Positions 1 to 40,454 of a DNA stretch of 64,000 nt are shown one piece after another; within the stretch, counting starts at the first letter, position 1; each line of letters starts with the position of its first letter. The stretch is taken from the NCBI GenBank assembly GCA_032718475.1, contig JAUCBJ010007324.1, forward strand, positions 41,957 through 105,956, written 5' to 3'. The notes beneath the pieces are model-generated. The model ran no database searches, was not told the origin of the DNA, and worked only from the letters and a program-made list of their open reading frames with translations. Source of the stretch: Nemertoderma westbladi (Eukaryota; Animalia; Xenacoelomorpha). Position numbers and translations under genes: made by a program.

Positions 1-2411
1 GATATGTTGTTATATTGATTATTCTTCGCGATTTTATATTGAATTTGTTTAAATTGTATTGAATTTCTCTGATAATTATGTTCTGATTTTGTACCGTAAA
101 AACGTAACATAAACATATATGTATTAACCCTAATTGTGTTTTGCTTGTGTTGGTGATTTTGTGAATCAAAATGGTGGAATAAAGACACCCGGTGATCGAT
201 TCGGAATTCAAACCCGTTGTTTTAACACATGAGCGGCACATTCTCCGCCTAATAATGATAATTATGGAGTGAGGAGGTCGAGCTGTACCTACCGGCCGAC
301 TGCGGGAGCCACAGGACTACAGGATGGATTATATCATACAACATGAGTGAAACATAAGGGCAGTAAGTTGGACTGGGTAAGCCACAAGGGGAGGGGGGTT
401 TCATTAGGTTGATGTACACAATTCTATTAGGTTAACTGGTGCTTTAACTATTTTTCCTGTACTTGGGTTTGGGCCAAATTGAACCGGGATACCCCATCAC
501 AATAACCACACAGGCAGCACGGAAGTGCAAAAGGGGGAGTGTTGATATATTTGGTATCAGCGCTCATCGTTTTCACTTAGGTTTGGGTCTCATTTGGATA
601 CTAACATTCATTTCACTTCATCTTTATTTATTTTGACCTTTTGTTTGGGTTGAGTAAGCTTATATACCAAGTTTCAGCTACTAACAGCATTATTTTCAGT
701 CCAGCAGTAAATGTATTTGGGGTATTTAGATAGTGTTAATCATCTCTCACAATCATTAGTTTGACACTCTTACAGTTACTTTACAGAGTAGAAGTGAAAA
801 ATTAGAGAATATCTGCAAATTTATCCACGAGATAACCAGGTTTAGTATTGCGTTATAATTTCCTTCCTTTACTACCGTCGACAGCGGTGCGGTGTATAGA
901 AATATAGAGAATTTGTTATAGCGGGAAAATTTATGATAAATTGTGTTTATATTTTGTTTGTTTACAAATTGTACTCGATACAACCCTTACCTATCGGCAG
1001 TTTAGTTTGCAGTATATGTGGTGGATAAGGGGCCATCACGCTAGTAAATTGTTTTAATAAAGTTGATAATATTAGCAGGGATTCCTCACCAACTGGAGTT
1101 TCCTTGTTGATCTTTATATAGACCGGTTTATTGTTTTGCTTTCTTTCGAAACTGATACGTATTGCGATAATTTTGATTCGTATTCAACAGTGGTTATTAT
1201 GTTAATAAATCTGCAATGTGCTTTAGCGAAATCTTTTTAGCCAATTCTTAGCTGATTTGCGATGTAAAAAATTATAAATAAATCACAGAGTTGCTATAGC
1301 GCCGCCATTGAGTAAAGTTTCTATCGAGTTCGAAAGTTTGTATAGCCAAAAAGGGCTGCATTATAAGATTTAAATGAAATTAAAAATTTATATTTCGGTC
1401 GAAATTGTTAGGATAAATTTAGTGTAAATCTACCAGACAGCCACCTAATTCTCTAATACAACTTACAAGAACATCACTTTCATCACCACAACCAATCCGG
1501 GATCTGGGGACGTTTGACTTGGTACGCAAGTGAACTGATCATTGACGAGGTTGGGACGTGGGACGGCGTCCTTTAGCATCAATCACAGGTTGGTCGTAGT
1601 GTCGATAGGATTGTGCTTGTGGGATCTATAGTTTATTTGTGGCTGTTTGAAGGTTTGTTAAAATACTTATGCACAGTATTTGTGGCACTTGTGCATACAA
1701 AATAAATTTGGTGTTGTAATTTTTTAAGTACAATTTTAAATTACTTCCCTTTGTTGTATCTTATTGTCCCAGCATCCAGGGTCTCATAAAGTCGAGCCAA
1801 GGATATATTTTATGAAATAAAATAAAATAAGAAAATTGGAAATTAATTGAGTTGTGAAAGTTTGTTTTACCCCCATTCGATACGAAGGTAGTACCACTCT
1901 TCCCCTTTCCAACCGCGTTACTTTCGTCCCCGTACGATTAATATTAGCCGAGTTATAGCGGATCCCGCAAAGTCATTTTGTCCGTTTTTTCAACTTTGAC
2001 GGACATTTTCGGAAAAAAGGCGTGGTAATCTTTTTTGAAAAAAAAAACGAATTCACTAATTAATCCCTTCTATCGTATCCCGGCGTCGGCTAAGCAATAA
2101 CCTAGGGTTTTTTCGAGCCACTGTAGAGCGCCTTTCAACAAAATTTTAAAATTGTCGAAAAAATGACGGTTTTTTTGTCCGCCGTGTCCGTCGAAGGGTT
2201 AGATTTAATAATGTTAGAGTTGCTAATATCTTAGAATTCCGAGCCGCTCCCCTGGTGAGAAAATAAAAAAATTTGGTCAGTTCCTTCATCGAAAAGTCCC
2301 CCAGAATCCCAAGTTAACCTATATAGTTAGCGATGGCCTGCGGCTTTAGGAGCGGCCGCATTCACCTCCCTCATAGCGGCCGCGGCGGTGTTGCGTCAAA
2401 TGGAGAAATAT

Positions 2412-2690
2412 TTATCCCACCAAGAATGGTGCAAGTGTGTCTCCCTGGAGGACGCCCCATAACACTTCAAATGGTTCTGTGTGACCGTCAACAGTAGACC
2501 TAAATGTTGTCGAACCATCGTATACTGATCTGAATTCTGCAACAATTTCATCAGGAATCCCATATAAAGAAAGTATGCTAAACATACGTGAGCGAGAGAC
2601 TGAATCAAAGGCCTTGAAGAAGTCAACAAAGATAACAGCCAGATGCCTGTCTTTCTTTTTTGATAACTCTTCAATTATCCTTCTATATAA
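2412..2690 (-). mobile_element. Fragment of RTE-clade non-LTR retrotransposon reverse transcriptase (second RTE family)
   Basis: Translation RRIIEE...VIFVDFFKAFDSVSR...LYGIP...GVLQGDTLAPFL matches RTE RT motifs; truncated on both sides. Related pieces at ~54925-55190 and ~58965-59105. Confidence 0.85.
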
Positions 2691-4476
2691 CGAGCGCAAT
2701 GATAGTTGTAATGAAGACAAGTCTGTGCTGACTAAACTCCTAAACCACAGAACGCAAAACGGAACCATCTCCCCAAGACATAATACGGCAATGAACCATG
2801 TCGTATCCAGAACCTAAACAGAACCCCACAATAAGATCATATTGGCTATCGAATCTTTTGTCGAATTAATACCAATTTACGTAAATACTGGCGTTTTGTA
2901 ATCTTTTATTCACGGAATTGGCAAATTGTTCACTGCTGCCTTTTTTAAAGTACTGGTACACACACAAAGGGTTAATCTGAACCATAACGTGTGCCATAAC
3001 AAAATCATAGACAAAACCATACCGGTAGGCCTATCATTACCTGCACTGTGACCTTGAGAGATCTAAAGCCTTACAAGAATTATAACCATATCTTGAAACA
3101 GAACCCTTACATGAAACCATAACAACGATAACGCAAAACTGAATCATAACATTACTCTGGCCGTATTAAAACTATTTTACATTTAACCTGGCGATATGTA
3201 GACTTTTAATAACCACATTGGCAAATTGTTAACATATTTAGCATCTGGCGCAAGCCGAATATTTTATAACAAAATTGGCGTTTCATTACATGTTTGTAAA
3301 TATTACAAATTGAGACAAGTTGTTTGTTGTTTGTGTGCCAGAATATACTTAGTAGAAATGCGGTGAAAGGAAAAGCCGGCAAATAAATGTACTTGCCCCA
3401 TGTAAATTGTTGAGAAAACCTCCATCATTAAAATTGTCTGACCGCATAAAATAGCGTGCCTATCACTCATAGGACTCAGTAAATTCGAATTTTTCATAAC
3501 CGGTATACAGTATATAACGTTTCTGCAGCGTTCATTATTTTTAGAATTTGTTGTGCTATTAGACATGATATTACATTTTGTTGTGTTTATGTTTTGAAAC
3601 TATTATCTGGTTGTTTCTTGTTTCTTGTGAGGGGGGGGGGGGGGGTGGGGGGGGGGGGCTGGGGGGGAATTACCGATTTTATGGTTTAAGAAACATGACA
3701 TTCAAACAAGGGAAGGTAAAATAGTTATAGTCCGCTACATGTAGGGGAAGTCAGGTGTAATCTCATATATATATGTCATAAATAAACCCCTATCATTTAT
3801 ATTAAAAAAACGGTCATTAAAATTGAAAAAAAAACCATCATTAAAATTGTCTGATCGCATAATACAAACCTTTATCCTAACCTTAACATGAACCACATTA
3901 AAACCTTGCCATTATTACTTGTAGGGCGTACCTAGACATTCAACAGTCCGTCATACCATACAGCCATACCAATACTTGAATGCTGAAACGTGATTGGCGC
4001 AAGTTTTCGGTGCTGCTTCCCAGTGGATGTTTACTGGTCACACATATTTTCGTTTCATCAGCCGTTCCTTCCCCCTCTGGGGCTTCACTCCATTGTAATT
4101 AGAAATCACATTCTATGAATTCAATAGCTAAATTTGCAGTGAAAACATTGTCAAAGAGAGTGAAAATAATGTAGTTGATTGTTTAACGCCATTTCTATGG
4201 AAGGAGTTAAAATAATGTTTAATTTATTGGTTTTACAGTATTATATTATTAGCTTCACAATTTTTTCATTTATGGCGCATTTCCTACTAATCCCTTATTA
4301 GAAAATTCATTTTAATCATAATTTGTTAATTCGTCATTTTTTATATTTATTGCGCATTGTTAAGTGCGATCTGAACCAATATCATATATAAGAAAGGCGT
4401 ATTCGCCTCAATAATATTATCCTCAATAAAATATATTTTGGAATAGGTTTAAATACAACGATGTTCCACGCGGTGA

Positions 4477-6074
4477 TACTACTACTACTACTAGGTCGAG
4501 CGAACTCGGACAGTGTAAATGAGATCCTTCCAGGCTTCCCGATTCTCCATAGTTGTCGCAATTTCGTTTCTCCCAAGTTCAGTATCCCTTTCAAGTTGAT
4601 CTATATATGTTATGGCTGGTCGTCCACGACTACGCTTTCCATGAGTCGGTTGCCAGAAAAGTAGATCTGGTATGACCTCGTCTTTACTTCGCCAGCAGTG
4701 CCCACTGAATCTTAATCTGCGTTCACGGAGGGTGGTTGATACAGGTGGTATTGTACCATAAAGCTCGGCGTTTGTCATGTGTTGTCTCCAGCTGATGTTT
4801 AGGGCTGCCCTTAGTAGTCTTGTGTAGCAACCATCAATTCGTTGTTCAAGTGATTTAGTCAGTGTCCAGGTCTCACCCCCGTATAAAAATACACTTTCCA
4901 CTGTGGCTCGAAAGAACTTAGTCTTCAGGTGCCTGGAGAGATCTGATTTCCAGATGGTATCCATTTTTGATAGAGCTACCCAAGCCTTTGCTTTCCTAAC
5001 TTCTATGTCCTTTTTGCTACTCTCTATCCATGATCCAAGGTACTGGAAGTCATCGACCTTCCTTAGTTGATTATTATCAATGGTTGTCAAGTTTCCATCA
5101 ACATTAAAGGTCATGAATTCGGTCTTGGTAGCATTTATATGCAATCCAACCTCCTTAGCAGCCCTCTCCACTTTATTTAGCAGAAGCTGTGCATCTGCTA
5201 GCGTATTAGAGAGCAGGGCGATGTCATCCGCAAAGTCGGTGTCTGTGACTGTAGTTGCCGGATATCTACTACTTCTGCGTTCTTGAAGTGTGAATCCCAG
5301 ATCTTCACCCTTTGTGGCCGTCCTCATTGCGTAATCCAGCACAATTACAAATAGTAATGGTGCTAAGGTGTCACCTTGCAGTACGCCAGCCAGGATTGCG
5401 AAAAACTCAGTTTCACCATCTGGTGTGAGTACCTGCGCTTCTGTGTCACAATATAACAATCCAATGCCAGCAACAATTACTTCTGGTATTCCATAAGCTC
5501 TTAGGATTTCAAGCATTTTACCTCTATAGATGGAGTCGAATGCCTTCTTGAAGTCCACAAAAGTCATGACTGCGGGGAGATTCTTTGACTTAATTCCTTC
5601 AATCAGTCTCCGTAGTGCAAGTATCTGAGCTATTGTTGATCTACTTGGTCGAAATCCGTTTTGGCTCTTACGCAGTAGTTTCTCTATGTGAGGCCTAATC
5701 CTATATAGAATCATTTTATTGTATATTTTGGCAGCTACCACAAGCAGACAGATCCCACGATAGTTTGTGGGTATGCCGAGGTCTCCTTTCTTGGGGAGAG
5801 GCTTTAGTTGACCTTTAGTCCAAATTGGTGGTGGCTTTTCCCCTTTTAACATCCGGTTGCAAACATTCAATAATGGTCTATTTAGCACTCCGGTTTTCCA
5901 TACCTCCGCTGGGATTTTATCTAATCCACTCGCTTTATTATTGGACATGCTTTTAATGCTTCTTTGGAGTTCGGCAGGTGTGAAGTCCCCTGTTTCTATA
6001 GGTAGTGTCTTGTCATATATTTTCCTTGTAGGGCTGACCTCGATGTTTGGTGGCTGCCCAAGCTGCCCACGCAT
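4477..6074 (-). mobile_element. 5'-truncated RTE-clade non-LTR retrotransposon with (TAG)n 3' tail
   Basis: RT ORF ends in TAG, which is the first unit of a TAGTAGTAGTAGTAG tail (4477-4493). No APE domain upstream, so it is 5' truncated. Confidence 0.9.
4491..6074 (-). CDS. RTE-type reverse transcriptase (C-terminal 527 aa, uninterrupted)
   Basis: Motifs KASGLDKIPAE, NYRGICLL, QNGFRPSRST, FVDFKKAFDS, GVLQGDTLAP, DFADD, FQYLGS, plus the RTE C-terminus RRLRFSGHCWR...GKRSRGRP. Confidence 0.9.
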   Translation of the reverse strand: MRGQLGQPPNIEVSPTRKIYDKTLPIETGDFTPAELQRSIKSMSNNKASGLDKIPAEVWKTGVLNRPLLNVCNRMLKGEKPPPIWTKGQLKPLPKKGDLGIPTNYRGICLLVVAAKIYNKMILYRIRPHIEKLLRKSQNGFRPSRSTIAQILALRRLIEGIKSKNLPAVMTFVDFKKAFDSIYRGKMLEILRAYGIPEVIVAGIGLLYCDTEAQVLTPDGETEFFAILAGVLQGDTLAPLLFVIVLDYAMRTATKGEDLGFTLQERRSSRYPATTVTDTDFADDIALLSNTLADAQLLLNKVERAAKEVGLHINATKTEFMTFNVDGNLTTIDNNQLRKVDDFQYLGSWIESSKKDIEVRKAKAWVALSKMDTIWKSDLSRHLKTKFFRATVESVFLYGGETWTLTKSLEQRIDGCYTRLLRAALNISWRQHMTNAELYGTIPPVSTTLRERRLRFSGHCWRSKDEVIPDLLFWQPTHGKRSRGRPAITYIDQLERDTELGRNEIATTMENREAWKDLIYTVRVRST

Positions 6075-6249
6075 TGATGGAAGAGAATAATTGACATAAT
6101 GACCCTAATTAAAGAGTTATCTTTCTAAAAAAAAATAATATAGTATGTATAGGCCGAAACAAAGGAAAGTAGCGAGAAACAGAAGTACAAAAATGAAGAA
6201 TCTATTAATTATATCTCAACGAATTTCCTTGAAATAGATCGAACATCGA

Positions 6250-6512
6250 ACTTGATGAATGGCTCACGGACAATAAACTCTCCTTGAATCTAAAGAAAAC
6301 AGAATACATTATCGTGGACAATCGCAATTCAAATACAATAATTCCGGATGTGAGCCTTCATTCAACTCCATGAACTAAAACTACGGCATCAAAATTTCTA
6401 CGAATCTACATAGACAATAAAATAAACTGGAAAATTCGCTGCAACCATGTATTAGCAAAAATATCAAAATTATCCGGGATCTTCTTTAAACTGAGACACA
6501 TTCTACCTCTGG
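6250..6512 (+). mobile_element. Degenerate L2/CR1-type RT C-terminal fragment
   Basis: Plus-strand pieces read EWLTDNKLSLNLKKTEYII and KFLRIYIDNKINWKIRCNHVLAKISKLSGIFFKLRHILP, resembling the equivalent region of the intact element at 28116-31613. Confidence 0.6.
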
Positions 6513-6514
6513 AC

Positions 6515-6972
6515 ATCGTAGTATCCCTCGTTGTTAGTGAGTGAGGTGTCCAAGGTCCCCATAATGGAGGCCGCATTTCCAACCATGATGGCAACAGCCA
6601 GTCTCTACAAGAGGAAGCGGTGGGATCGGGGTTCCTTGGTAACAGAGTGGAGTCTTGCCCTGATTTCCTTCAGGAACTCGGATGTTTCAGGGCCGGGGCG
6701 GCCCAAGGTCTCGTAGGCTACTTGGGGGAAGAGGTAGCCCTGGTCCATGAGTTCCTGGTACTTGTGGATCTTTAGAGTTTCCACTTCCTCTGCAGTGCGC
6801 CTCCGGCGGATAGCGTCTGGGCGAGGTGGCTGGGCGACAGTGGGTCCTCCACCGTCGCGTCCCACACAAGGCGAGGTGGCTGGGCGCCAGTGGGTCCTCC
6901 ACCGTCGCGTCCCACACAAGGCGAGGTGGCTGGGCGCCAGTGGCTCCTCCATCGTCGCGTCCCACACAAGGC
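6515..6972 (-). mobile_element. 3' fragment of CRE-clade non-LTR retrotransposon (restriction-like endonuclease region)
   Basis: LVWDATVEDPLAPSHL, K..KY.EL...YLF..VAYETLG and the terminal AVAIMVGNAASIMGT are characteristic CRE C-terminal motifs. Frameshifted, with an internal stop. Confidence 0.75.
6821..6970. repeat. 3 x 50-bp tandem repeat within the CRE fragment
   Basis: GCGAGGTGGCTGGGCG(C/A)CAGTGG...CGCGTCCCACACAAG starts at 6821, 6871 and 6921. Confidence 0.9.
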
Positions 6973-7049
6973 TTATTATTCTTATTACTCTTATTATTTT
7001 ATATCTATAATTTTGTTATATTCTATATTTGTCTTCCTCTCGAACAGTT

Positions 7050-7370
7050 GCCCCCGCTCTTACCGCTTCCTTCTGCCGAGACCGGTGTTGCCCTCCTGGT
7101 CGGAAATGCGGCCTCCATTATGGGGACCATGGACCCCTCACTCACTAACAACAAGGGACTCTACGGGGTGGTCTATGGTCCCTAGTACCCCCCCCCCCCC
7201 CTCCCTCCCCAATGAAACAGACAAACTTACACCCCACCCCCCCCCCCCCCCCTCCCCAATGAAACAGACTAACTTACACCCCACCCACCCCTCCCCATAG
7301 CTTTCTTATATTAATATGTTATTAATATTTACATAATTTCTTTATTATGACTGAATATAAATAACTGGGA
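7050..7370 (+). mobile_element. Second CRE 3'-end fragment, inverted relative to 6515-6972
   Basis: 7055-7160 is a diverged reverse complement of 6523-6632 (GNAASIMGT region). It is followed by a stop codon and a C-rich, partly duplicated 3'UTR. Confidence 0.7.
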
Positions 7371-8212: not shown

Positions 8213-10510
8213 AGCTGAAAATCTGATTTGGTTTCATGTCAGTGTTCCATATAGGAATGTAAGTATATAGAGAAGGAACCCTGTGTATCCAATACAGACC
8301 CCCCTGGGTTTACTGAACAAGTCTGTAACCAATCCACTGATCGCTGTAATTAATGCTAAATATATCCTTTATAAGGATATAAATAGCTGAACTGGTGATT
8401 TTGGATGCAGAATGGAGTGCGATTGTCCAAACAGAGTTGATAGTTTAGTAACACGGACGGACGTACAATGACATAGGGTTGTCGGGTAACTTTAGGGAAA
8501 CCACAACCAGCCACAGTGGGACCGAGATAATTAGAATAGATTAGATAAACATATAACATTATAGTAGTTCTGAATGGGAACCAACTCCGTTACACTCATT
8601 GTAAACCAATGTTTTATTGGTTAAAGAACCGATTGGTTAATAATATAACCAATGGGAACCTCTGAGTAATAATTAAAACGTTTTATTAGTGGATGGACCA
8701 GGTTTGTATCTACCAAAGGGACGTAGCAGATACACAGGTATTACTCGAATACTCAATACAGATAATATGGGAATAAAATCGAACAAAAACTAATTAAAAT
8801 GAAAATCAATTGAGGGAAATTTATATCATTTATGTATTTATATCTGATATAAATTAATTATTTTAGATCTAATTTTAGCGAAAATTGCGAGCTCTCCCTA
8901 TGCAAAATAATTAAATCTTTATTATTATTTATAATATTAAATAAAGTTATAAAATTCCCATAATATAAATTATTACATAAACCTATTTATAATACTGGCC
9001 CTCAACATCAATACTATTAAATATTTTCGGTAACTGAATATAATATTCTGTAAGATACGGGATTGAACTGGTGTTATTCAATCAATTGATCTGATCTTCT
9101 TTTGAATACTTAGGAGAGTTTGAGTTTAGAACATCGGAACTACTGTCTGTCTGTAGGGTTGGATTACTTTATTGGGATGTTATTTGTTAATTTGTTGATT
9201 TGTTATAATTAAGTTTCTCTTCTCTGATATTCCAATATTATATATATAATAATCTGCTTCTGTTTTCTTATATTCCAAATGGCATCTTGTTTGGTTTGCG
9301 ATTATTCTGTAAATATAGGAATTAAATAGGTCCATAAAATTTGCATATTATTGAAACTTTTTTTTATGTTACATTTCTTTATATAATATTTAATTTATTT
9401 CGAATATGCACCAAACAATACCCCCCACCAACAGACAACATGTATTAATTGACCAAGTAGAAAAGGGCGGGAAATTTAAAACTATCAGTATGATAGGCCC
9501 TAGTGATATAAGGCGGGAAATTTAAAACGATTTCAACATTGAAACTATTTCAATGCAACTAAATAGTACAGTAATAATTTTAAGGAGCATTTCTAACATT
9601 CTAAAAGGAGAAATTTCTTCCTGACTGAAAACCAAAATTAGTTCTAGAGGCCTTTGGACTCAATGTACTCACCTTAATATATCGAAGATTCAACTCCTTA
9701 AATAAATCGGATTGTTGGTCTAGTTGGAATATAAGATATGTTGCCGAAATCTCAATGTTAAATAATAATCTGTCAGAGTTGAACTGAAGTTGTTGATTTA
9801 GAAGTCAAGAGTTGATACTTGTCTGGAAAATAGCAAAACGGAAATGATTTCGTATAAAAATTGATTAGCTTATCTAATAATTAATTTTTAACGAATTCGT
9901 TTATTTAATTTTTCACTCACCAAAATGTAAAATAATCGTAATTTTTATCTTAAGTATTTCTCTAAGTTCTAAACAGAGACATTATTAGTGAATAATGGTT
10001 CTGGGGTTGGTTATTCAACTCAATGTAACTCACCGACGACATATCGAAGCTTGTCTTACTGGATCTTTCGGAGATTTTGAGCTAATTTCATTGAGTTGTA
10101 GATTTGGAAACCTTCTAGATAATTGTCTGAAATATAACAAAAATGAAATATTATGATTTCATAACTTTAATTAGCTCATCTAACAGGTTAGTTTAACAAA
10201 CTCTGTGCAACAAATTATTAAACACTTAGTCTGTTGTTGTTATTTAATAGCAAAAACCAATACCGGTACCATTATAGAGGTAGGACAAGTAACTAAGTCA
10301 TTGTATATGTTATGCCCGACTGCTATACTTACTTTAGTATTTATTTAGTTAGTGGCGACCAACTGGGTTTCTTCATTGAATTCACAAATTGTGTTTCTTT
10401 TTGCGGCAGACTTAATCTATAAATAAATTAGGGATAATAAATGTCTAAATGGCAGTTTAACGGAAAATTAAATCATTAGCTAAACATCAGCTGGAGAAAA
10501 CAAACTAACA

Positions 10511-13500
10511 AACGCCGAGCTCTATGGCACTATACCACCTGTATCAACCACCCTCCGTGAACGCCGAGCTCTATGGTACTATACCATCTGTATCAACCGC
10601 CCTCCGTGAACGCCGAGCTCTATGGTACTATACCACCTGTATCAACCACCCTCCGTGAACGCCGAGCTCTATGGTACTATACCACCTGTATCAACCACCC
10701 TCCGTGAACGCCGAGCTCTATGGTACTATACCACCTGTATCAACCACCCTCCGTGAACGCCGAGCTCTATGGTACTATACCATCTGTATCAACCACCCTC
10801 CGTGAACGCCGAGCTCTATGGTACTATACCACCTGTATCAACCACCCTCCGTGAACGCCGAGCTCTATGGTACTATACCATCTGTATCAACCACCCTCCG
10901 TGAACGCTGAGCTCTATGGTACTATACCATCTGTATCAACCACCCTCCGTGAACGCCGAGCTCTATGGTACTATACCACCTGTATCAACCACCCTCCGTG
11001 AACGCCGAGCTCTATGGTACTATACCACCTGTATCAACCGCCCTCCGTGAACGCCGAGCTCTATGGTACTATACCACCTGTATCAACCACCCTCCGTGAA
11101 CGCCGAGCTCTATGGTACTATACCACCTGTATCAACCACCCTCCGTGAACGCCGAGCTCTATGGTACTATACCATCTGTATCAACCACCCTCCGTGAACG
11201 CCGAGCTCTATGGTACTATACCACCTGTATCAACCACCCTCCGTGAACGCCGAGCTCTATGGTACTATACCACCTGTATCAACCACCCTCCGTGAACGCC
11301 GAGCTCTATGGTACTATACCACCTGTATCAACCACCCTCCGTGAACGCCGAGCTCTATGGTACTATACCACCTGTATCAACCACCCTCCGTGAACGCCGA
11401 GCTCTATGGTACTATACCACCTGTATCAACCACCCTCCGTGAACGCCGAGCTCTATGGTACTATACCATCTGTATCAACCACCCTCCGTGAACGCCGAGC
11501 TCTATGGTACTATACCACCTGTATCAACCACCCTCCGTGAACGCCGAGCTCTATGGTACTATACCATCTGTATCAACCACCCTCCGTGAACGCCGAGCTC
11601 TATGGTACTATACCACCTGTATCAACCACCCTCCGTGAACGCCGAGCTCTATGGTACTATACCATCTGTATCAACCACCCTCCGTGAACGCCGAGCTCTA
11701 TGGTACTATACCACCTGTATCAACCACCCTCCGTGAACGCCGAGCTCTATGGTACTATACCATCTGTATCAACCACCCTCCGTGAACGCCGAGCTCTATG
11801 GTACTATACCACCTGTATCAACCACCCTCCGTGAACGCCGAGCTCTATGGTACTATACCACCTGTATCAACCACCCTCCGTGAACGCCGAGCTCTATGGT
11901 ACTATACCATCTGTATCAACCACCCTCCGTGAACGCCGAGCTCTATGGTACTATACCACCTGTATCAACCACCCTCCGTGAACGCCGAGCTCTATGGTAC
12001 TATACCATCTGTATCAACCACCCTCCGTGAACGCCGAGCTCTATGGTACTATACCACCTGTATCAACCACCCTCCGTGAACGCCGAGCTCTATGGTACTG
12101 TACCATCTGTATCAACCACCCTCCGTGAACGCCGAGCTCTATGGTACTATACCACCTGTATCAACAACCCTCCGTGAACGCCGAGCTCTATGGTACTATA
12201 CCATCTGTATCAACCACCCTCCGTGAACGCCGAGCTCTATGGTACTATACCATCTGTATCAACCACCCTCCGTGAACGCCGAGCTCTATGGTAGTATACC
12301 ATCTGTATCAACCACCCTCCGTGAACGCCGAGCTCTATGGTACTGTACCACCTGTATCAACCACCCTCCGTGAACGCCGAGCTCTATGGTACTATACCAC
12401 CTGTATCAACCACCCTCCGTGAACGCCGAGCTCTATGGTACTATACCATCTGTATCAACCACCCTCCGTGAACGCCGAGCTCTATGGTACTATACCACCT
12501 GTATCAACCACCCTCCGTGAACGCCGAGCTCTATGGTACTATACCATCTGTATCAACCACCCTCCGTGACCGCCGAGCTCTATGGTACTATACCATCTGT
12601 ATCAACCACCCTCCGTGAACGCCGAGCTCTATGGTACTGTACTATACCATCTGTATCAACCACCCTCCGTGAACGCCGAGCTCTATGGTACTATACCACC
12701 TGTATCAACCACCCTCCGTGAACGCCGAGCTCTATGGTACTATACCATCTGTATCAACCACCCTCCGTGAACGCCGAGCTCTATGGTACTGTACTATACC
12801 ATCTGTATCAACCACCCTCCGTGAACGCCGAGCTCTATGGTGCTATACCACCTGTATCAACCACCCTCCGTGAACGCCGAGCTCTATGGTACTATACCAT
12901 CTGTATCAACCACCCTCCGTGAACTCCGAGCTCTATGGTACTGTACTATACCATCTGTATCAACCACCCTCCGTGAACGCCGAGCTCTATGGTACTATAC
13001 CACCTGTATCAACGACCCTCCGTGAACGCCGAGGTCTATGGTACTATACCACCTGTATCAACCACCCTCCGTGAACGCCGAGCTCTATGGTACTATACCA
13101 CCTGTATCAACCACCCTCCGTGAACGCCGAGCTCTATGGTACTATACCACCTGTATCAACCACCCTCCGTGAACGCCGAGCTCTATGGTACTATACCACC
13201 TGTATCAACCACCCTCCGTGAACGCCGAGCTCAATGGTACTATACCAACTGTATCAACCACCCTCCGTGAACGCCGAGCTCTATGGTACTATACCACCTA
13301 TATCAACCACCCTCCGTGAATGCCGAGCTCTATGGTACTATACCACCTGTATCAACCACCCTCCGTGAACGCCGAGCTCTATGGTACTATACCGCCTGTA
13401 TCAACCACCCTCCGTGAACGCCGAGCTCTATGGTACTATACCGCCTGTATCAACCACCCTCCGTAAACGCCGAGCTCTATGGTACTATACCACCTGTATC

Positions 13501-14209
13501 AACCACCCTCCGTGAACGCCGAGCTCTATGGTACTATACCACCTGTATCAACCACCCTCCGTGAACGCCGAGCTCTATGGTACTATACCACCTGTATCAA
13601 CCACCCTCCGTGAACGCCGAGCTCTATGGTACTATACCACCTGTATCAACCACCCTCCGTGAACGCCGAGCTCTATGGTACTATACCACCTGTATCAACC
13701 ACCCTCCGTGAACGCCGAGCTCTATGGTACTATACCACCTGTATCAACCACCCTCCGTGAACGCCGAGCTCTATGGTACTATACCACCTGTATCAACCAC
13801 CCTCCGTGAATGCCGAGCTCTATGGTACTATACCACCTGTATCAACCACCCTCCGTGAACGCCGAGCTCTATGGTACTATACCACCTGTATCAACCACCC
13901 TCCGTGAACGCCGAGCTCTATGTTACTATACCGCCTGTATCAACCACCCTCCGTAAACGCCGAGCTCTATGGTACTATACCACCTGTATCAACCACCCTC
14001 CGTGAACGCCGAGCTCTATGGTACTATACCACCTGTATCAACCACCCTCCGTGAACGCCGAGCTCTATGGTACTATACCACCTGTATCAACCACCCTCCG
14101 TGAACGCCGAGCTCTATGGTACTATACCACCTGTATCAACCACCCTCCGTGAACGCAGATCTCTATGGTACTATACCACCTGTATCAACCACCCTCCGTG
14201 AACGCCGAG
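10511..14209 (+). repeat. 49-bp satellite, ~75 copies, derived from RTE RT coding sequence
   Basis: Unit AACGCCGAGCTCTATGGTACTATACCACCTGTATCAACCACCCTCCGTG is 47/49 identical to the reverse complement of 4724-4772. Confidence 0.95.
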
Positions 14210-14399
14210 TCAACACACCAGTCGGGATTCCCTCGCCAACTCGGGGGACCCGTCGCAAGATATATAAATCGTATTAGCAATACTTAATTAAGAAGCAATT
14301 AATAGTCAATCAAATAATATAGACTATTTGTTGGAATTTGTAAAATATCACATTTTGTTAATTTACCACTCACCGAAAATAGGAAGTCCCACACCCGTG

Positions 14400-17300
14400 T
14401 TCTGAGTTTGGTCGGTTCACATATCGTGGATTCGAGTTTGGTTGATTCACATATCGTGGTTCAGAGTTTGGTTGGTTCACATATCGTGGTTCACAGTTTG
14501 GTTGGTTCACATATCGTGGGTCAGAGTTTGGTTGGTTCACATATCGTGGTTCAGAGTTTGGTTGGTTCACATATCGTGGTTCAGATTTTGGTTGGTTCAC
14601 ATATCGTGGTTCAGACAGAGTTTGGTTGGTTCACATATCGTGGTTCAGAGTTTGCTTGGTTCACATATCGTGGTTCAGAGTTTGGTTGGTTCACATATCG
14701 TGGTTCAGACAGAGTTTGGTTGTTTCTCATATCGTGGATTCGAGTTTGGTTGGTTCACATATCCTGGTTCAGAGTTTGGTTGGTTCACATATCGTGGGTC
14801 AGAGTTTGGTTGGTTCACATATCGTGGATCAGAGTTTGGTTGGTTCTCATATCGTGGATTCGAGTTTGGTTGGTTCACATATCGTGGTTCAGAGTTTGTT
14901 GGTTCACATATCGTGGGTCAGAGTTTGGTTGGTTCACATATCGTGGTTCAGAGTTTGGTTGGTTCACATATCGTGGATCAGAGTTTGGTTGGTTCTCATA
15001 TCGTGGTTCAGAGTTTGGTTGGTTCTCATATCGTGGTTCAGAGTTTGGTTGGTTCACATATCGTGGTTCAGAGTTTGGTTGGTTCACATATCGTGGTTCA
15101 GACAGAGTTTGGTTGTTTCTCATATCGTGGATTCGAGTTTGGTTTGTTCACATATCGTGGTTCAGAGTTTGGTTGGTTCACATATCGTGGGTCAGAGTTT
15201 GGTTGGTTCTCATATCGTGGTTCAGATTTTGGTTGGTTCACATATCGTGGGTCAGAGTTTGGTTGGTTCACATATCGTGGTTCAGAGTTTGGTTGGTTCT
15301 CATATCGTGGTTCAGAGTTTGGTTGGTTCACATATCGTGGGTCAGAGTTTGGTTGGTTCTTATATTGTGGTTCAGAGTTTGGTTGGTTCACATATCGTGG
15401 GTCAGAGTTTGGTTGGTTCACATATCGTGGTTCAGAGTTTGGTTGGTTCTCATATCGTGGGTCAGAGTTTGGTTGGTTCTTATATTGCGGTTCAGAGATT
15501 GGTTGGTTCTCATATCGTGGTTCAGAGTTTGGTTGGTTCACATATCGTGGTTCAGAGTTTGGTTGGTTCTTATATTGTGGTTCAGAGTTTGGTTGGTTCA
15601 CATATCGTGGGTCAGAGTTTGGTTGGTTCACATATCGTGGTTCAGAGTTTGGTTGGTTCTCATATCGTGGTTCAGAGTTTGGTTGGTTCACATATCGTGG
15701 GTCAGAGTTTGGTTGGTTCTTATATTGTGGTTCAGAGTTTGGTTGGTTCACATATCGTGGGTCAGAGTTTGGTTGGTTCACATATCGTGGTTCAGAGTTT
15801 GGTTGGTTCTCATATCGTGGATTCGAGTTTGGTAGGTTCACATATCGTGGATTCGAGTTTGGTTGGTTCACATATCGTGGTTCAGAGTTTGGTTGGTTCA
15901 CATATCGTGGTTCAGAGTTTGGTTGGTTCACATATCGTGGTTCAGAGTTTGGTTGGTTCACATATCGTGGTTCAGAGTTTGGTTGGTTCACATATCGTGG
16001 TTCAGAGTTTGGTTGGTTCACATATCGTGGTTCAGAGTTTGGTTGGTTCACATATCGTGGTTCAGAGTTTGGTTGGTTCTCATATCGTGGATTCGAGTTT
16101 GGTAGGTTCACATATCGTGGATTCGAGTTTGGTTGGTTCACATATCGTGGTTCAGAGTTTGGTTGGTTCACATATCGTGGTTCAGAGTTTGGTTGGTTCA
16201 CATATCGTGGATTCGAGTTTGGTTGTTTCTCATATCGTGGATTCGAGTTTGGTTGGCTCTCATATCGTGGTTCAGAGTTTGGTTGGTTCACATATTGTGG
16301 TTCAGAGTTTGGTTGGTTCACATATCGTGGTTCAGAGTTTGGTAGGTTCACATATCGTGGTTCAGAGTTTGGTTGGTTCACATATCGTGGATTCGAGTTT
16401 GGTTGTTTCTCATATCGTGGATTCGAGTTTGGTTGGCTCTCATATCGTGGTTCAGAGTTTGGTTGGTTCACATATCGTGGGTCAGAGTTTGGTTGGTTCA
16501 CATATCGTGGTTCAGAGTTTGGTTGGTTCACATATCGTGGATTCGAGTTTGGTTGTTTCTCATATCGTGGATTCGAGTTTGGTTGGCTCTCATATCGTAG
16601 TTCAGAGTTTGGTTGGTTCACATATCGTGGGTCAGAGTTTGGTTGGTTCACATATCGTGGTTCAGAGTTTGGTTGGTTCACATATCGTGGTTCAGATTTT
16701 GTTTGGTTCACATATCGTAGATTCGAGTTTGGTTGTTTCTCATATCGTGGATTCGAGTTTGGTTGGCTCTCATATCGTGGTTCAGAGTTTGGTTGGTTCA
16801 CATATCGTGGGTCAGAGTTTGGTTGGTTCACATATCGTGGTTCAGAGTTTGGTTGGTTCACATATCGTGGTTCAGAGTTTGGTTGGTTCAGATATCGTGG
16901 TTCAGAGTTTGGTCGGTTCACATATCGTGGTTCCGAGTTTGGTTGGTTCACATATCGTGGTTCAGAGTTTGGTTGGTTCACGTATTGTGGATTCGAGTTT
17001 GGTTGGTTCACATATCGTGGTTCAGAGTTTGGTTGGTTCTCATATCGTGGTTCAGAGTTTGGTTGGTTTACATATCCTGGTTTAGAGTTTGGTTGGTTCT
17101 CATATCGTGGTTCAGAGTTTGGTTGGTTTCACATATTGTGGATTCGAGTTTGGTGGGTTCACATATCTTGGTTCAGAGTTTGGTTGGTTCTCATATCGTG
17201 GGTCAGAGTTTGGTTGGTTCACATATCGTGGTTCAGAGTTAGGTTGGTTCACATATCCTGGTTCAGAGTTTGGTTGGCTCTCATATCGTGGATTCGAGTT

Positions 17301-19497: not shown

Positions 19498-22400
19498 CTA
19501 TTTCCTAACTGTCTTTATGTTTTTTCTAGTTAGTAATTTAACTAAGTGGCTCTGATTAGTTTTATTCAATAATTCACAGAATACAATAAAGTCATCATAA
19601 GGTCTCCTTTTAATGGCTTCTATTAGTTCGCTGTTCCTTTGTAAACCAGTCGGCTGATATTTGATCTGCTCAATAAGATTTTCAGTAAGAATATTTCTAC
19701 TTCTCAATAGCGGTAACAATTCTCTCAGCTCCATGTTATAAACCAGTTCAACTTTATTCCTCATAAGAATATTTTCAAATTCTACATCAACGTTTCCTTT
19801 TATCATATCTACTAAATGTTGTTGGTTTGTTTGTGTTAAACTATCCATAAATACTTTCATAATGAACTCTGATTTCCCTTTCAGAGATTCTATAATGGCT
19901 CGGCTCTTTAGTATTTTAGTTTCTCTTGTTTCTATAAACTGAATCTGATCATTGTTTAGTATAAAACTTTTTTCGATATATAGTAATAACTCAGTTGGTT
20001 CAAGTTTTTCTTCAAATTTTTTTGTTTCAACTTTTAAATATTCCTGATCCTTTGATTTAACTAAAAACCAAGTTTTATATTCCTGAGTTTCTATACTTGC
20101 ATTATTCTCACAGGTAATTATTGGTTTACTCAAACAATCTGATAGTAGAATAAAGTGGATACAGGATTCATTGTGGCATTTATATAGGCCATGCCTTTTA
20201 CATGTATATGAACAAGGACATGTTACTTTCAATTGAAAATCAACAATATTGTTTATTTTTCCAGCTGATATAAGTTCTCCCAAGCTGTCAACAATGTAAT
20301 CTTTTACTCTGTTTGCAAAATCAGAATCTGGAGGACTTATAATATTTTCGTTGCTATCAATATTATCTTTAGGTTTCATAAGAACTTTTCTTACAATTTG
20401 AACTTTTATTCTAGAAAAATGCCTTGGAGACACATATAGAATTATATCGTGATCAACATCACAGTATATAACTACAGACCGGTAGTAAAGAGTTGGTTCA
20501 GATTTAATATCTCCAATGAGATACGACCATTCTATAAGGCGTTTTACTAGTCGATAAAATAGACCCTCAGGTAAAAAACCATTAAATGCAATAAAAAATT
20601 CAATATCATTTGCTTTAATAGGGTAAATAGGCTGATTGGCATTCTGAAGTCTACAAGGTACATAATATGATTTATTCATTTTTGACTTTTTTAACAATGG
20701 TTCTGATTCGTCTCCATTACCTGGCACAGTTTCTCCTATTCTTTCACATATTAAATCAAAACGCTCTAGGATTTTTAACATAAAAGTTTTTTTGAGTCCC
20801 ATATTACCCCAGATATCGTCCAGTAGATCCCAGTGCAATATACCCTTGTCATCCAAATCCTCAAAATATTTCAAATTTTTCCAATTGATATGTTCTTTGA
20901 CTGTAATTATACTGGCAAACATTGAACTTAACCACTCTGGTTTCAATATAATTGTATCACGCAACGATTCTTCATCAAAATAGATAATTCTACCTCTATC
21001 ATGGTAAAATTCTAACATTGTCTTTAAACCGGGGTATTCAAATTCTACTTTTATTTCCTTTAACTTACATTCTAAATCTATAATATCAATATATACGTCA
21101 TCAATTTTAAGTAATTGAGTTACAAGTTTTTCAAATTTTAAATAATCCAAAGGAATTTCTTCCTTAAATTTGTCCATTTCTTTAACAATTTCTAGCTGTA
21201 AGTTTTGAAGTTCTTCATCTGAATCTGATCTTGCCTCTTTGCTATTTTCCACAGCAAATGCTTCTTTAACTAAAATATTGCAATGCAATGTGGACTTTAA
21301 TAGTCGGAAAATTTCTTTAAACTTTTTACGAGCTAAAATGTTCTGAGTTTCTGGATCTTCATGCAAACTGGCTTTCTTTGTTCCAACTAAGAATACTGGA
21401 GGACCAGAAATGTTTGCGCCACTTTCTGAATTATTTTTACCAAATGTAAATATATTGCGCAACCAAAAATCAATAAATTCTATATTAGTCATCTCGCTAT
21501 ATATCTTATTTATATTCTCTTCATCGGCTCTGAATATAATGTTGGCTGTTTTATCACCATCTTGGGTAAGATCAAAAACAACTATATAAATAGCCCGTCT
21601 ACTTAGAAACATCTGATGGGTTGTGTAATAAATACATTGGCCACCAAAATCGACTATCTGTAGAGAAAAGCGACTGTCTTCCTCATTAAATTTAGCCAGA
21701 ATATCTTGAGGTTTACCAGATAACAATATATCCTCTATACCTTTTGTGACTTCTGAAGGGATATCATATTTATTGCCCTCAAATTTTGATTCATGTGGCG
21801 TTACGACTTTTCCGCTATCAGATATTTTTCCTCTTTCGCTATCTACTGAAATATCTTCTCTAATTTCCTTGCTGCTTTCTATTTTAACAGGCTTATCATA
21901 AGAACTGGTTCTATTATTCATGTCTCTATCGCTATTTTCACCAGATATTACTGATAAAGTTGACTGGGCGCCATCAGTGTATATTTTTTCACTGTCCACA
22001 TTAGAAGCATCTTCTTGAACTTTGAATTCTAGAACACTTTTTGCAACTTTCTTTGCAACAGCATTGTCTGGATCAGCATCTAATATATCAACATTCTTTA
22101 AGTTAGTCCAGTCTGTGTGTTTATCAGTATCTATAACACAATTAGCCACTGAATTAATACCATCTGTTATTGGTTCATTAATATCAAATGGTTGACCAAT
22201 AAGGGCCTTCTTCAAACTAGTTTTACCAGCCCTCTCTTGTCCCACTAACATTAACCGGGTTTTCAGTATCCATGTAGTCCCTTTAGAAAGAGCTGCTTTA
22301 TAAGCAGCCAATGCTTCTGGGCCTCTCGCCAGTATCTCTATCGGCAGTTTTTGTTCTTTTATATAATTAATTAAAAATTTTGGAAGTTTCAGTGTATTTG

Positions 22401-22766
22401 ATCTACTTATATTCATAATCATAAGTCCCATGTCTCTGAATTTATTAACAATTTCTATTGTTGAAATTTCATTTAAACCCCAAATACTAACCAGATTCTG
22501 AGTTGTTAACTCAGAAATATCTGCATCCAGTCTAAAGTAAAGTTCTTTCTCTTTATCAGAAAGAACATCAACAGTAGACTTAATTATATTATTTATCTTA
22601 CCCTGAAGTGGTTTATTTATGGGACCAACCCATCCGATATACTCAACAATTTCCTTTAATTCTTCAGTTTTCTCCAATATACTTTCCACCTGTTTGATAC
22701 TTTTCTTTGTTTCAGTTTGACCTTCACGGAACGTATCAATTACTGTAATTGTGTCGCCATTATCTC
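19498..22766 (-). CDS. Last coding exon of a ROCO-family gene: end of WD40 blade, winged-helix-like segment, Roc GTPase, COR, Cys/His cluster, two CARD domains
   Basis: Acceptor tactttatacAG|GA at 22767/22766. Roc lead-in PIEILARGPEALAAYKAAL; P-loop GQERAGKTS (22242-22216); G3 DFGGQ (21651-21637); YYTTHQMFLSRRAIYIVVFD; PPVFLVGT; COR ML.FYHDRGRIIYF...IILKPEWL and PEGLFYRL. Two C-terminal CARD-like repeats (~20045-19800 and ~19775-19530, e.g. LMRNKVELVYNMELRELLPLLRSRNILT...RNSELIEAIKRR...FCELLNKTNQSHLVKLL). Confidence 0.88.
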
Positions 22767-22809
22767 CTGTATAAAGTATAATTATTGTTAAGCTGTCTTT
22801 CCATCCACT

Positions 22810-23180
22810 GAGTTGACATCCAATATTACGATGAAAAATTCTGGGTTGGAGCAAGTTAAATTTTATTAATCAAGTTACAAATATAATTATAAATATAATT
22901 CGTTAGGCTCTCCAGTATGCACCTACGGTCCCTATACGTTTCCCTGCCTATGTCTTCTGTTTTTTGGTTACAACATTTATTCTGTTTTTAGTGCAATTTT
23001 CAACAGATCAAGTCATACATTACGTTAGTCAATTCTGCAATTTATATTAGAATTTGTACTTTATTGATAATGATAGCGCTGACCTACCGAAATATATATG
23101 TAATAATATTTGACATTTGATTAATAATATTTAACTTGCTCCAACCCAGATTTTTTCATCGAATATAACTGACATCTCAA
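22810..23180. mobile_element. MITE-like element with ~80-bp imperfect terminal inverted repeats
   Basis: CGATGAAAAATTCTGGGTTGGAGCAAGTTAAAT (~22830-22862) is inverted at ~23129-23161 (ATTTAACTTGCTCCAACCCAGATTTTTTCATCG). Confidence 0.65.
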
Positions 23181-28074: not shown

Positions 28075-31000
28075 ACAGTTTTTATCCCTGAGTCAGACTA
28101 CAGCCAGACAGCACAATGTCCCCGCTCTTAATCTCCACAGTTTTCATCGTTCTGGGTCGTTTCGTTGTGGCAGAACCATCCGATCCGCGGGGTAACCCTG
28201 CAACCCACCCAATACCCGTATTGGACTGGTTTGCGGAACACCCTGTCGCTACCGTTTCGAACTGCCGCGCCGAATCGACGGAGATGTGGTCGACGAGTGG
28301 ATTTAGCCTCTACTGCTCTCGTCCGGGAAGAAGATCTTGGGTCTCCTCTCCACGAACTAGAGGCCTAATCGCCAAACTCTGTCTTCTGTCTCTGGCTGGG
28401 GATATTGAAACCAACCCAGGACCCAGCAGGACGCGGGCCCCGAAGATCAACTGTCCCGTCTGTCAACGAGGAACAAACTCTCGGAGTAAGATCGTCCAAT
28501 GCGAGAGTTGTGACACATTTGTACATTTAAAATGTTACCGTAGGAAACGCAGTAATTTATTCTCCACCAGAAACAATCTTGAACCAAGTTTTCTCTGCAA
28601 TAGCTGTATTTTTACCGAACTTCCCTTTCATGATACAATTTTAGAATCAGAAACCGACGATTCATTTCTCACATCGCCTCTGCAAACTCCAAGTGATGCT
28701 GAGAGTGAAACTTTTAATTTTTTTAAGAAAAAAGGTCTGCATTTTTTGCACTTAAACGCACGATCTCTGCTTCCAAAACTTTCCGAAATTCGTATTTTAA
28801 TCAATAAATCCAACCCAGCAGTTTTAACAATCTCTGAAACTTGGCTCGATGATAGTGTTTCTGATGGAGAAATTTATATTGATAATTACGTAGTTTTACG
28901 TAAGGATAGGGACAGACACGGTGGTGGTGTCTGTACTTACATTCGATGTGATTTAGCTTTTAATCGTAGGGAAGATTTAGAGACTTGTGACGAAGTTTTA
29001 CTGGTGGAACTTTTACTTCCTAAAACTAAACCTATTTTAATCGGTACTTTATATCGGCCCCCTAAACAATCAGATTTTTTGCAAAATTTTGAAAATACAA
29101 TTTTATGTAATCTTAGGTCAGACTGTGAAATATATTTCTTAGGTGATTTTAATATCTGTTACCATCACAAAGCATCCCCCATCTGTAAACAGTACCAAAG
29201 TATTTTAAATTTGTTTGGTTTAAAACAAATTATTCGAGATTCTACCAGAATTACCAGTAAATCTTCTACTTTACTAGATCACATCCTTTGTAATAATACC
29301 GATATTATTTCTCAATCTGGGGTTTTACCTATAGGTCTAAGCGATCATTTTATAGTTTTTTGCACAAGAAAGACACAAAAATCTTTTTTCGGGGATCATA
29401 AAACAGTAACAGTTAGGTCTATGAAAAATTACAGCAAGGAACGCTTTTTAAGTTTGTTAGTTAATTCTGACTGGGAACCCTGTTTTAAGGCCGCTGACAT
29501 TAACCTTGCGTACACTGTTTTTAAAGATATATTTTTAAAGGCACTTAATACTGTAGCACCAATTAAAGAAATTAGTCTTAAACAACGCACTGAGCCCTGG
29601 ATGACCTCGGGTATTCTTAGTAATATCAGAGAAAGAGATAACTATTTGTATAAATTTAGGAAATACCGTGTTTTAGCTGATTATAATAATTACTGCAAAT
29701 ATAGAAACCTTGTCCAACGGGAAATAAAAAAAGCTAAATCTGAATATTTGTACAACAAAATAAGTGAGAATAAAGATAATCCTAAAAGTCTATGGTCTAC
29801 CCTAAAATCTTTAGGTTATAAAAACCTTAAATCTAAATCGAATATTGTTCTGCAAGATAACGGTGAGCTGATTCATGATCATACTCTAGTTAGTAATTTA
29901 TTTAATAATTATTTTACTAATGTTGCCTCTAATTTAGTTAAGAAATTACCGTTATCAAGTAATAAATATAGTATAGGGTCCGAAACTCTAAATAATTTTT
30001 ATTTAGAAAAGTTACAAAATTCAGAAAAGTTATTTTTAAAACCCGTTTCTGAGGATTTCGTTTTTAAAAATCTACTTAGCCTATCAGCCTCAAAAAGTAC
30101 CGGTCTAGATCTAATACCTGCCCGTTTTCTTAAGGATGGTGCTGAAGTACTTAAAGTGCCTATTACTTTTATTATTAATTACTCTATCGTAGATAATGTA
30201 GTACCAGACGAACTGAAATTAGCTAAGGTTGTTCCGCTGTATAAAAAGAATAGTAAAGTAGAACCCTGTAATTACAGACCTGTTAGTATCTTAAGTATTG
30301 TATCTAAAATTCTAGAACGTTCTGTTTTTCTACAGCTGGAAGCACATCTTAGTAGGCTAAATCTGATCTATGAACTTCAGTCCGGTTTTCGTAAATCATA
30401 TTCTACAGACACCTGCCTTATTAACTTAACTGATACAATTAGATGTAATAACGCAAAGGGTTTATATACTGGTATGGTAATGTTGGACCTACAAAAGGCT
30501 TTCGATACTGTAGATCACAATATTCTGCTTGGTAAGTTAGGCCTGATGGGTGTAGGTTCTATAGACTGGTTCAAGTCCTACCTGTCAGACAGAGGTCAAA
30601 CTGTAGTCATTAGCAAATCGCAGTCTACTGTACAAGAGATTACCTGTGGTGTACCGCAAGGTAGTATATTAGGTCCTCTGCTTTTTGTATGCTATGTAAA
30701 TGATATGATAAGTAGTATAGATCCCGATTTTAAACTCATTTTATATGCCGACGACAGTGCTCTTATTTTCTCTCATAAAGATCCTATCCATATTTCCCAA
30801 AAGTTAAGTGCAGTTCTAGAATCCTGTAATGAGTGGTTGGTTGATAATAAGCTATCCATTCACTACGGTAAAACTGAAAGTATTTTGTTTGGTTCCAAAA
30901 GAAAGTTAAAGAAGGTAACTAAGTTTGAAGTCACTAGTAATGGACATAAGATTGAAAATAAAAAGGAAGTTAAATATTTAGGCGCCACATTGGATAACTG

Positions 31001-39377: not shown

Positions 39378-40454
39378 GGCGTTTGAAAATTTTTAGTTTT
39401 TAAATTATGCATAACTTGCAATCAACTTTATAAAACCGCTTCATATTTCATTGTAACAACAATTTTGATGAGGGCTTTCAGAAAAAAATGATTTTTTTTT
39501 ATTTAAATAGTATGACGTCATGTAATGACGCCATATTTGAAATACGCCGTTTCGTCAAAAAAATATCAAGGGCTTTTGCCAAAATATGTCAAGTAGTATA
39601 TTTTTACTTATAGCATAAGCCCGGTTCACAATGGAGCAATAAGGTCCTCCATTGTAATTCTGAATATAATTAATTATAGTTTTGCTAAAATTAGAAACGA
39701 TTATTTGTTCTTATGTGTATTACTGGGTCTAAGACCTTTAATCCTTCCTTAAAACTTGTTTCTTCATTGTGAACAACTACTGTACCAATTAATTTATTAT
39801 TCCCTATTGCTCCATTTCCTTCAAGCTTTTTCCATGAAGGAGCGGGAGATTCAAATCTTTGTATTTGTATTTGGATAATCATTATTAATTGGTCTACCTT
39901 ACTACAGGCAGTACCGGTACTTACAACCCAAAAGAGCCTATACAGGGTTGAACTTGTAAGTGAACCGAGCAAAACGAGAGCGAAACTTTTTCTGACTCAT
40001 TTATTTGGTAATGGTAATAACTACCAGTAAGAGTTGCCTTGAGGCATACAGGCAGACAGGTACCGATACAGTTCTGGTGCTGCACTATAGTAGGCTTTCA
40101 TAAGTAAATATGCTATACCAGTACTATCAGTTTTGTCAGTTCCCTATTTTTGCTACCGGTATCTAAACATCCTGTGTGAAATTTCAACGAAATTTGTTAG
40201 GATAAAAAAATTATAGCTCAATAATCGCTCGCATTGTTAGCCCTACTTTCAGACTTTTTCCTGTCTAATTATTTAGCATCCTTGTTTAGAATTCTCACTA
40301 CTGTTATTAGACTATGTCTGTAATGTTTTAGATTCAGTCAAGCGAATTAAAAATTGCTCTGTTGTTTTACCGGTAGTCATGTTTATAGGCTTATTATTAT
40401 TATGTTTTGTTCACGGTACTTTTTGACTTAGACCTATTTACTACTCTGCTACTT

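Follow-up and report, generated by a model that had tools for sequence, protein, structure and literature searches.

The 49-bp tandem array in this part of the Nemertoderma westbladi genome is a LINE-derived minisatellite that likely nucleated at a short direct repeat, a kind of array that is already known. Its unit comes from the RT gene of an RTE-like LINE family, one copy of which lies 4.4 kb away in the same window (the whole 64,000-nucleotide stretch of DNA analyzed here). Taken together, the evidence makes it probable that an older RTE fragment underwent a duplication between direct repeats, that the duplicate expanded by DNA-level processes, that a larger block carrying it was then multiplied, and that the neighboring RTE copy arrived later. 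Satellite DNA in the strict sense consists of very long heterochromatic arrays; the array described here is 3.7 kb long. The array, its source segment, and its edges are as follows:

4724-4772, minus strand: family segment equal to the array unit, encoding the peptide NAELYGTIPPVSTTLRE, C-terminal to the RT core, with AACGC on both sides
10480-10510, plus strand: RTE-derived leader, 27/31 columns equal to RTE 4802-4773, forming the left edge of the RTE fragment
10511-14209, plus strand: 49-bp by 75 tandem array with the RTE sense on the plus strand; 49 is not a multiple of 3, and the longest stop-free frame is 66 aa
14152-14160, plus strand: start of unit 75, 9 bases identical to the RTE bases 3' of the unit (rough chance, 6e-4)
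14210-14300, plus strand: right flank, weakly similar to and collinear with the RTE 3' part

TRF reported 75.2 copies of a 49-bp period with 96% matches at 10511-14209. When the array was split into 75 units, 37 were identical to the majority unit and 3 were 54 bp long, each with a 5-bp insertion; the 72 units of 49 bp differed from the majority unit by a mean of 0.625 differences. The majority unit and the reverse complement of 4724-4772 agree at 47 of 49 positions, and the leader differs from RTE 4802-4773 by three substitutions and one inserted base over 31 columns. Searched against the window with BLASTN, the leader plus first unit aligned at 91% over 81 columns (E, 4e-27). The initial annotation had already traced the unit at 47/49 to an RT-gene segment on the opposite strand, named RTE coding DNA as the origin of the array, and described a near-terminal copy running into the true RTE continuation, and these points hold, the last of them as the 9 bases that begin at 14152.

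RTE sequence embeds the array unequally, with the 31-bp leader on the 5' side and, on the 3' side, the 9 bases in unit 75 followed by the weak likeness at 14210-14300. Since unit 75 opens with the RTE downstream bases, the array formerly adjoined RTE downstream sequence. At present it stops 9 bases into a 76th unit and is followed by sequence without a clear RTE match, so that the 3' part of the fragment would have been lost. The lack of clear RTE sequence at the right array end is contrary to a simple in-place duplication. Depending on which of four scoring schemes was used, the score of the right flank against the RTE 3' part was reached by 6, 4, 2, or 0 of 1,000 dinucleotide shuffles and by 6, 11, 3, or 0 of 1,164 stretches of the window, and a protein profile gave a weak match (E, 0.09). 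This likeness is either chance or an older relic, with decay far beyond that of the leader. Upstream of 10480 the left flank showed no RTE likeness, as 825 of 1,000 shuffles scored equally well, and neither a target duplication nor a terminal inverted repeat was found around the 49-bp array or the 30-bp array.

The source family is represented in the window by the following copy:

4477-6063, minus strand: young, 5'-truncated RTE-like LINE copy with an open RT frame of 537 codons, a (TAG)5 tail, and an imperfect 12-bp target duplication (10/12)

The 537-codon frame, at 4491-6104 on the minus strand, matches RVT_1 (E, 5e-35), the only domain that this truncated copy carries. Its tail abuts the stop codon, contigs of other copies diverge at 4476-4480, and the 12-bp flanks match at 10 of 12 positions, with an empty-site join from 4473 to 6075. 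LINEs of the RTE clade have a 3' tail of short tandem repeats without poly(A), a single open reading frame with APE and RT domains, and target site duplications of 8 to 20 bp (PMC5850137). The tail of the neighboring copy is likewise a short tandem repeat and not poly(A). Exo_endo_phos_2 and RVT_1 occur in one protein in all four long homologues tested among the 120 listed, with the endonuclease above its curated cutoff in one of the four. Among the matches listed, the RT relatives include no named RTE reference, and the PDB matches are only to L1 and R2. We label the source element RTE-like, a safe label that draws on the tail, on the architecture of the homologues, and on C-terminal motifs of the RT that we take to be typical. 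The family is very abundant, with 14,890 matching contigs in short-read run X1 and 8,096 in run X3. The neighboring copy differs from a family contig in X5 by 12 letters over 1,572 (about 0.8%) and from the family majority at at least 11 places among the rows listed. X5, which may be an RNA run, yielded this single RTE contig and does not bear on expression in either direction.

The array was derived from the RTE and not the reverse, because 118 of the 120 listed homologues, at 50 to 67% identity, have the segment conserved and in one copy. The 31-residue region around the unit has the same length in these 118 and is doubled in none of the 120; residue L433 is conserved in 117, Y434 in all 120, and R448 in 118. 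By this comparison, the segment is evidently old single-copy coding sequence. Two further readings, that the RTE captured an older satellite or that the array is an artefact of assembly, have a probability close to nil. Capture is refuted for the origin by the conserved, single peptide in those 118 homologues, in line with the initial annotation, which had thought it unlikely. An artefact is contradicted by the array's junction and array-type letters in independent short-read contigs of two studies and by variants that are structured along the array. The initial annotation had allowed for such an artefact; with the array-type junction recovered from the short-read contigs of both studies, the array is not one.

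Within the RTE, the unit is bounded by the 5-bp direct repeat AACGC, which extends to an imperfect 9-mer (7/9). The initial annotation had placed the nucleation at this microhomology, and the 5 exact and 7/9 extended matches bear it out. The segment has the makeup of a source of transposable element (TE)-derived minisatellites, namely, a single-copy TE segment with a direct repeat of 5 to 10 bp at its bounds and the junction inside the repeat. Direct repeats are frequent in the RTE (106 exact 5-mers and 35 at 7/9 within 20 to 100 bp), and because they are so common they permit duplication, while microhomology alone does not explain the choice of segment. The array likely started when two short direct repeats within an older, inserted RTE fragment gave rise to a duplication.

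How the array grew can be read from its derived variants. The C28T variant is present in 23 units, all within units 2 to 50 and often alternating, and none of 100,000 random placements was as regional. Units 44, 47, and 50 share a 5-bp insertion, and units 58 to 61 equal units 68 to 71 within 0 to 1 base. Derived variants shared regionally in this way point to stepwise slippage and unequal exchange, and growth likely proceeded by these processes at the DNA level; a single burst of template jumping would not distribute variants among units in this manner. The initial annotation had proposed microhomology-driven slippage, through either repeated template jumping during reverse transcription or later replication slippage; the regional variants and the lack of an RTE tail favor expansion at the DNA level over template jumping. 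Target-primed insertion of a LINE should leave the tail of the element. Measured against what reiterative reverse transcription should produce, the array has no tail or target duplication and shares its derived variants regionally. As an explanation for the 75-fold growth, we disfavor repeated template jumping in reverse transcription, given the missing RTE tail and the regional variants. The first duplication could have been of either the slippage type or the reverse-transcription type.

To place the array in its genomic setting, contigs of four short-read runs were aligned over 10150-10569; X2 comes from the same sample as X1, and X1 or X3 is possibly the window's own source. The left flank enters here:

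10150-10479, no strand assigned: left flank, multicopy, with a summed contig depth of about 110 to 3,450 per bin in X1 to X3 (summed depth overcounts and is no copy number); one contig per run leads into the leader and the start of the array

One contig in each of X1, X2, and X3 links the left flank to the leader and array, covering 10412-10536 (depth, 506), 10412-10506 (431), and 10412-10535 (292), respectively, and takes in 68 bp of non-RTE flank. The initial annotation had described a unique 30-bp leader derived from the RTE; the derivation stands at 27/31, but the leader starts at 10480 and not at 10481 and, at these depths, is not unique. Depth at the left junction of the array (290 to 510) contrasts with 10 to 46 for the long contigs shown from the same runs. 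If those long contigs are single copy, the junction would be present in about 15 to 51, 14 to 20, and 6 to 29 copies in X1, X2, and X3, respectively, estimates made per contig and with the single-copy level taken from the few long contigs shown. Summed over contigs, the depth of the array-type letter C12 reaches 83 to 283 times the junction depth, as expected of long arrays. Run X4 covers no part of 10444-10499 and lacks the C12 letter, a hole that carries no weight. Judged from depth, the array likely lies in a block of about 6 to 50 copies, and the fragment with its array likely reached some tens of copies when this larger block was multiplied. No contig spans both the array and the RTE region, which makes their membership in one block conjectural. 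Exact scans of a metagenome contig collection for the tandem junction and for the neighboring 30-bp unit each gave 0 matches, in a collection that probably does not contain this organism.

The initial annotation had traced the array to the neighboring RTE copy, and this part of its account is not supported. Over the leader and unit, the array differs from that copy in 6 of 80 columns (7.5%), compared with 11/1,572 (Fisher p, 9e-5). Joins that skip the RTE run from 4473 to 6075 and from 4475 to 6126, both marked "between: not known," and account, at 6127, for 2,521 of the 2,527 units of flank depth in X1 and for 656 of 677 units in X3. With the site empty in nearly all of the flank depth, the RTE fills no more than about one of the many copies of the flank. 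Because the neighbor is young and its site mostly empty, while the junction of the array occurs in many copies and shows greater divergence, the neighbor is likely not the donor, and it likely inserted after the block had been multiplied. The age order, with the array before the neighbor, is independent of whether the RTE region and the array form one block. The founder of the array is an older copy or a member of a sister subfamily: the three changes in the unit and first unit are all synonymous (synonymous share, 41/147), those in the leader (three) are nonsynonymous, and synonymous-only changes also fit a sister-subfamily donor. That the neighboring RTE instead supplied the template locally, with a repair event placing an inverted copy 4.4 kb away that later expanded, is highly unlikely. 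Its proximity, inverted orientation, and 47/49 identity agree with such an event, but in so abundant a family a copy 4.4 kb away is unremarkable and proximity means little, and the copy itself contributes almost nothing to the flank depth and closely resembles other copies of the family, whereas the array fragment occurs in many copies and has diverged by 7.5%.

The preferred older fragment is not the only place where this junction is found. Elsewhere, a second repeat shares the tandem junction but carries other mutations; its depth is 1,437 in X1 and 75.5 in X4, and it has family-type letters at positions 12 and 21, substitutions of its own, and a 4-base insertion. Its recurrence reflects either one early duplication that split into two lineages or a site that was duplicated twice. 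In a second LINE-like fragment of the window, the left (5') edge carries a 50-bp triplication (6820-6972); Pfam gave no match for the frame at 6608-7009. Tandem arrays of unrelated units make up 34% of the window and, together with the 50-bp triplication, show that arrays form readily in this region. Queries with the ends of the other arrays matched no separate coding element in the window, except for the flank of the 50-bp case. A single first duplication in an RTE lineage, by reverse transcription or in a master copy, could also have been spread by retrotransposition, with the copies then expanding into dispersed 49-bp arrays. The second repeat, with its shared junction, other changes, and depths in X1 and X4, and the triplication at a 5' edge are what such a history might leave. 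However, the 49-bp duplication breaks the RT frame, so that only nonautonomous spread would be possible; the 68 bp of non-RTE flank in the multicopy junction would not be carried 5' by RTE retrotransposition; and the tail and target duplication are absent at the array. We therefore regard this history as unlikely.

A neutral reading of the array is the most likely one. A functional reading, to which we give only a small chance, is that the array was amplified or kept because its transcription would give small RNAs, predicted to be antisense, that target the active RTE family; the initial annotation had suggested that such anti-RTE small RNAs could arise. Each unit holds a 33-nt exact match to the RTE, and of the 49 possible 24-mers, 10 match exactly and 35 within 2 mismatches. 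A ROCO-CARD frame (19498-22869, minus strand) lies 5.3 kb off and points to the array, where read-through would be antisense to the RTE. Should the likeness of the right flank reflect a genuine but decayed end of the RTE, the unit has also been kept better than its flank. Against this, the divergence of the unit does not differ significantly from that of the leader (2/49 versus 4/31; p, 0.20), unrelated tandem arrays over 34% of the window mean that no special cause is needed, and thousands of RTE fragments are able to supply the same RNAs. Pairing of array RNA with the neighboring RTE could occur for about one of the many block copies. Slightly less probable again is a fuller version, in which the 49-bp stretch of the RT gene of an active RTE would be a recurrent birthplace of arrays, one of which, after block multiplication, would offer thousands of near-perfect RTE target copies, read antisense from the ROCO gene and selected as a small-RNA guide against the RTE family.

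Tandem repeats with LINE ORF2 coding sequence have been described before: the chicken HinfI (SCR1) satellite derives from CR1, and the Phodopus satellite PROsat is related to LINE-1 ORF2 (PMC9659126, PMC6947457). Compared with these as described there, the unit here is 49 bp long, is wholly coding, and shares 96% identity with an RTE-like family that is still young, and the source junction and leader are visible. Human minisatellites derived from Alu and other TEs, explained by the Haber-Louis direct-repeat model with repeats of 5 to 10 bp (PMC3389668, PMC6947457), likewise have a source unit bounded by a 5- to 10-bp direct repeat and later local expansion, and microhomology-mediated tandem duplication is documented (PMC13167724). 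Whereas the Alu-derived repeats in these reports average about 2.3 to 2.4 copies, the present array has 75, a source in RT-gene coding sequence, and an apparent multiplication with a larger block. In the SINE-derived satellites of squamates (PMC10702118), short parts of non-LTR elements are likewise amplified recurrently into moderate arrays at several loci, but the source here is a LINE coding region and not a SINE. The retrotransposon-derived satellites of Lathyrus sativus (PMC7004042) resemble the present case in that they originate within dispersed retrotransposons and become expanded at some of these loci; by that account the arrays pre-exist inside LTR elements, whereas the RTE family here has one copy of the segment. 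Among the titles listed, none described an array from RTE coding DNA, although such an array may nevertheless have been published, for instance in supplementary tables that match satellites to TEs; the nearest RTE title concerns RTE and microsatellite families (PMC2887409).

The array is a clean, young minisatellite from LINE coding DNA in which the source family, the junction, the leader, and a sister lineage are all readable. It could be used to date the duplication, the expansion, and the block amplification and to ask whether a single junction is a hot spot. Its importance would be greater only if small-RNA data showed that the array serves as an amplified antisense guide targeting the active family from which it came.

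Contigs from the sequencing runs compared with the window contain other versions of the 49-bp repeat, which forms a 75-unit array of RTE-derived coding DNA. Against 10533-10566, they include a second lineage that shares the unit-to-unit junction with the array and carries other changes (depth of 1437 in run X1 and 75.5 in run X4). Against 4727-4772, within the neighbouring RTE copy, X3 contigs present a 53-bp unit variant (depth of 359) that is absent from the window's 49-bp array.

Comparison of X5 contigs with 4492-6063 yielded one RTE contig, with 12 differences in 1572 bases and a depth of 17. Run X5 is filed under a different organism code. A mixed sample, the label, or transfer may be the source of this contig.

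X4 contigs point to a possible carrier of the 49-bp array, the regions concerned being:

10333-10417 and 14377-14405

The X4 contigs depart from the window at 10417, and because their departing letters resemble the head of the nearby 30-bp array, they hint that 10418-14376 is an insert within a dispersed element bearing that array.

Features elsewhere in the window, from frame, domain, and sequence reading
6500-6975, minus: non-LTR element fragment different from the RTE (sequence reading)
19498-22869, minus: open frame of 1123 codons that contains Roc and COR-A as well as a pair of CARD stretches (frame and domain search)
28092-31613, plus: LINE open frame of 1173 codons with PHD finger, endonuclease, and RT (frame and domain search)
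36918-39377 and 43326-45977, inverted: large duplication, one stretch of 1871 bp matching at 99.7% and another of 584 bp at 95.5%
40389-43952: 1187-codon frame flanked by the inverted duplication (frame search)

The Roc/COR-A/CARD frame lies between the 30-bp and 35-bp arrays. The 1187-codon frame, which we take to be transposase-like, contains an in-frame 30/150-bp repeat; a Pfam search of it returned no sound match. Altogether, 12 tandem arrays with units of 12 to 76 bp occupy 21,948 of the window's 64,000 bases (34%).

The 6500-6975 fragment, which has an inverted partner at 7052-7165 (85%), resembles the restriction-like endonuclease end seen in CRE/HERO-type elements; a Pfam search of the 6608-7009 frame gave no matches. 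At its 5' edge, a 50-bp coding segment bounded by GCC is present three times, constituting a second tandem repeat from LINE coding DNA within 64 kb.
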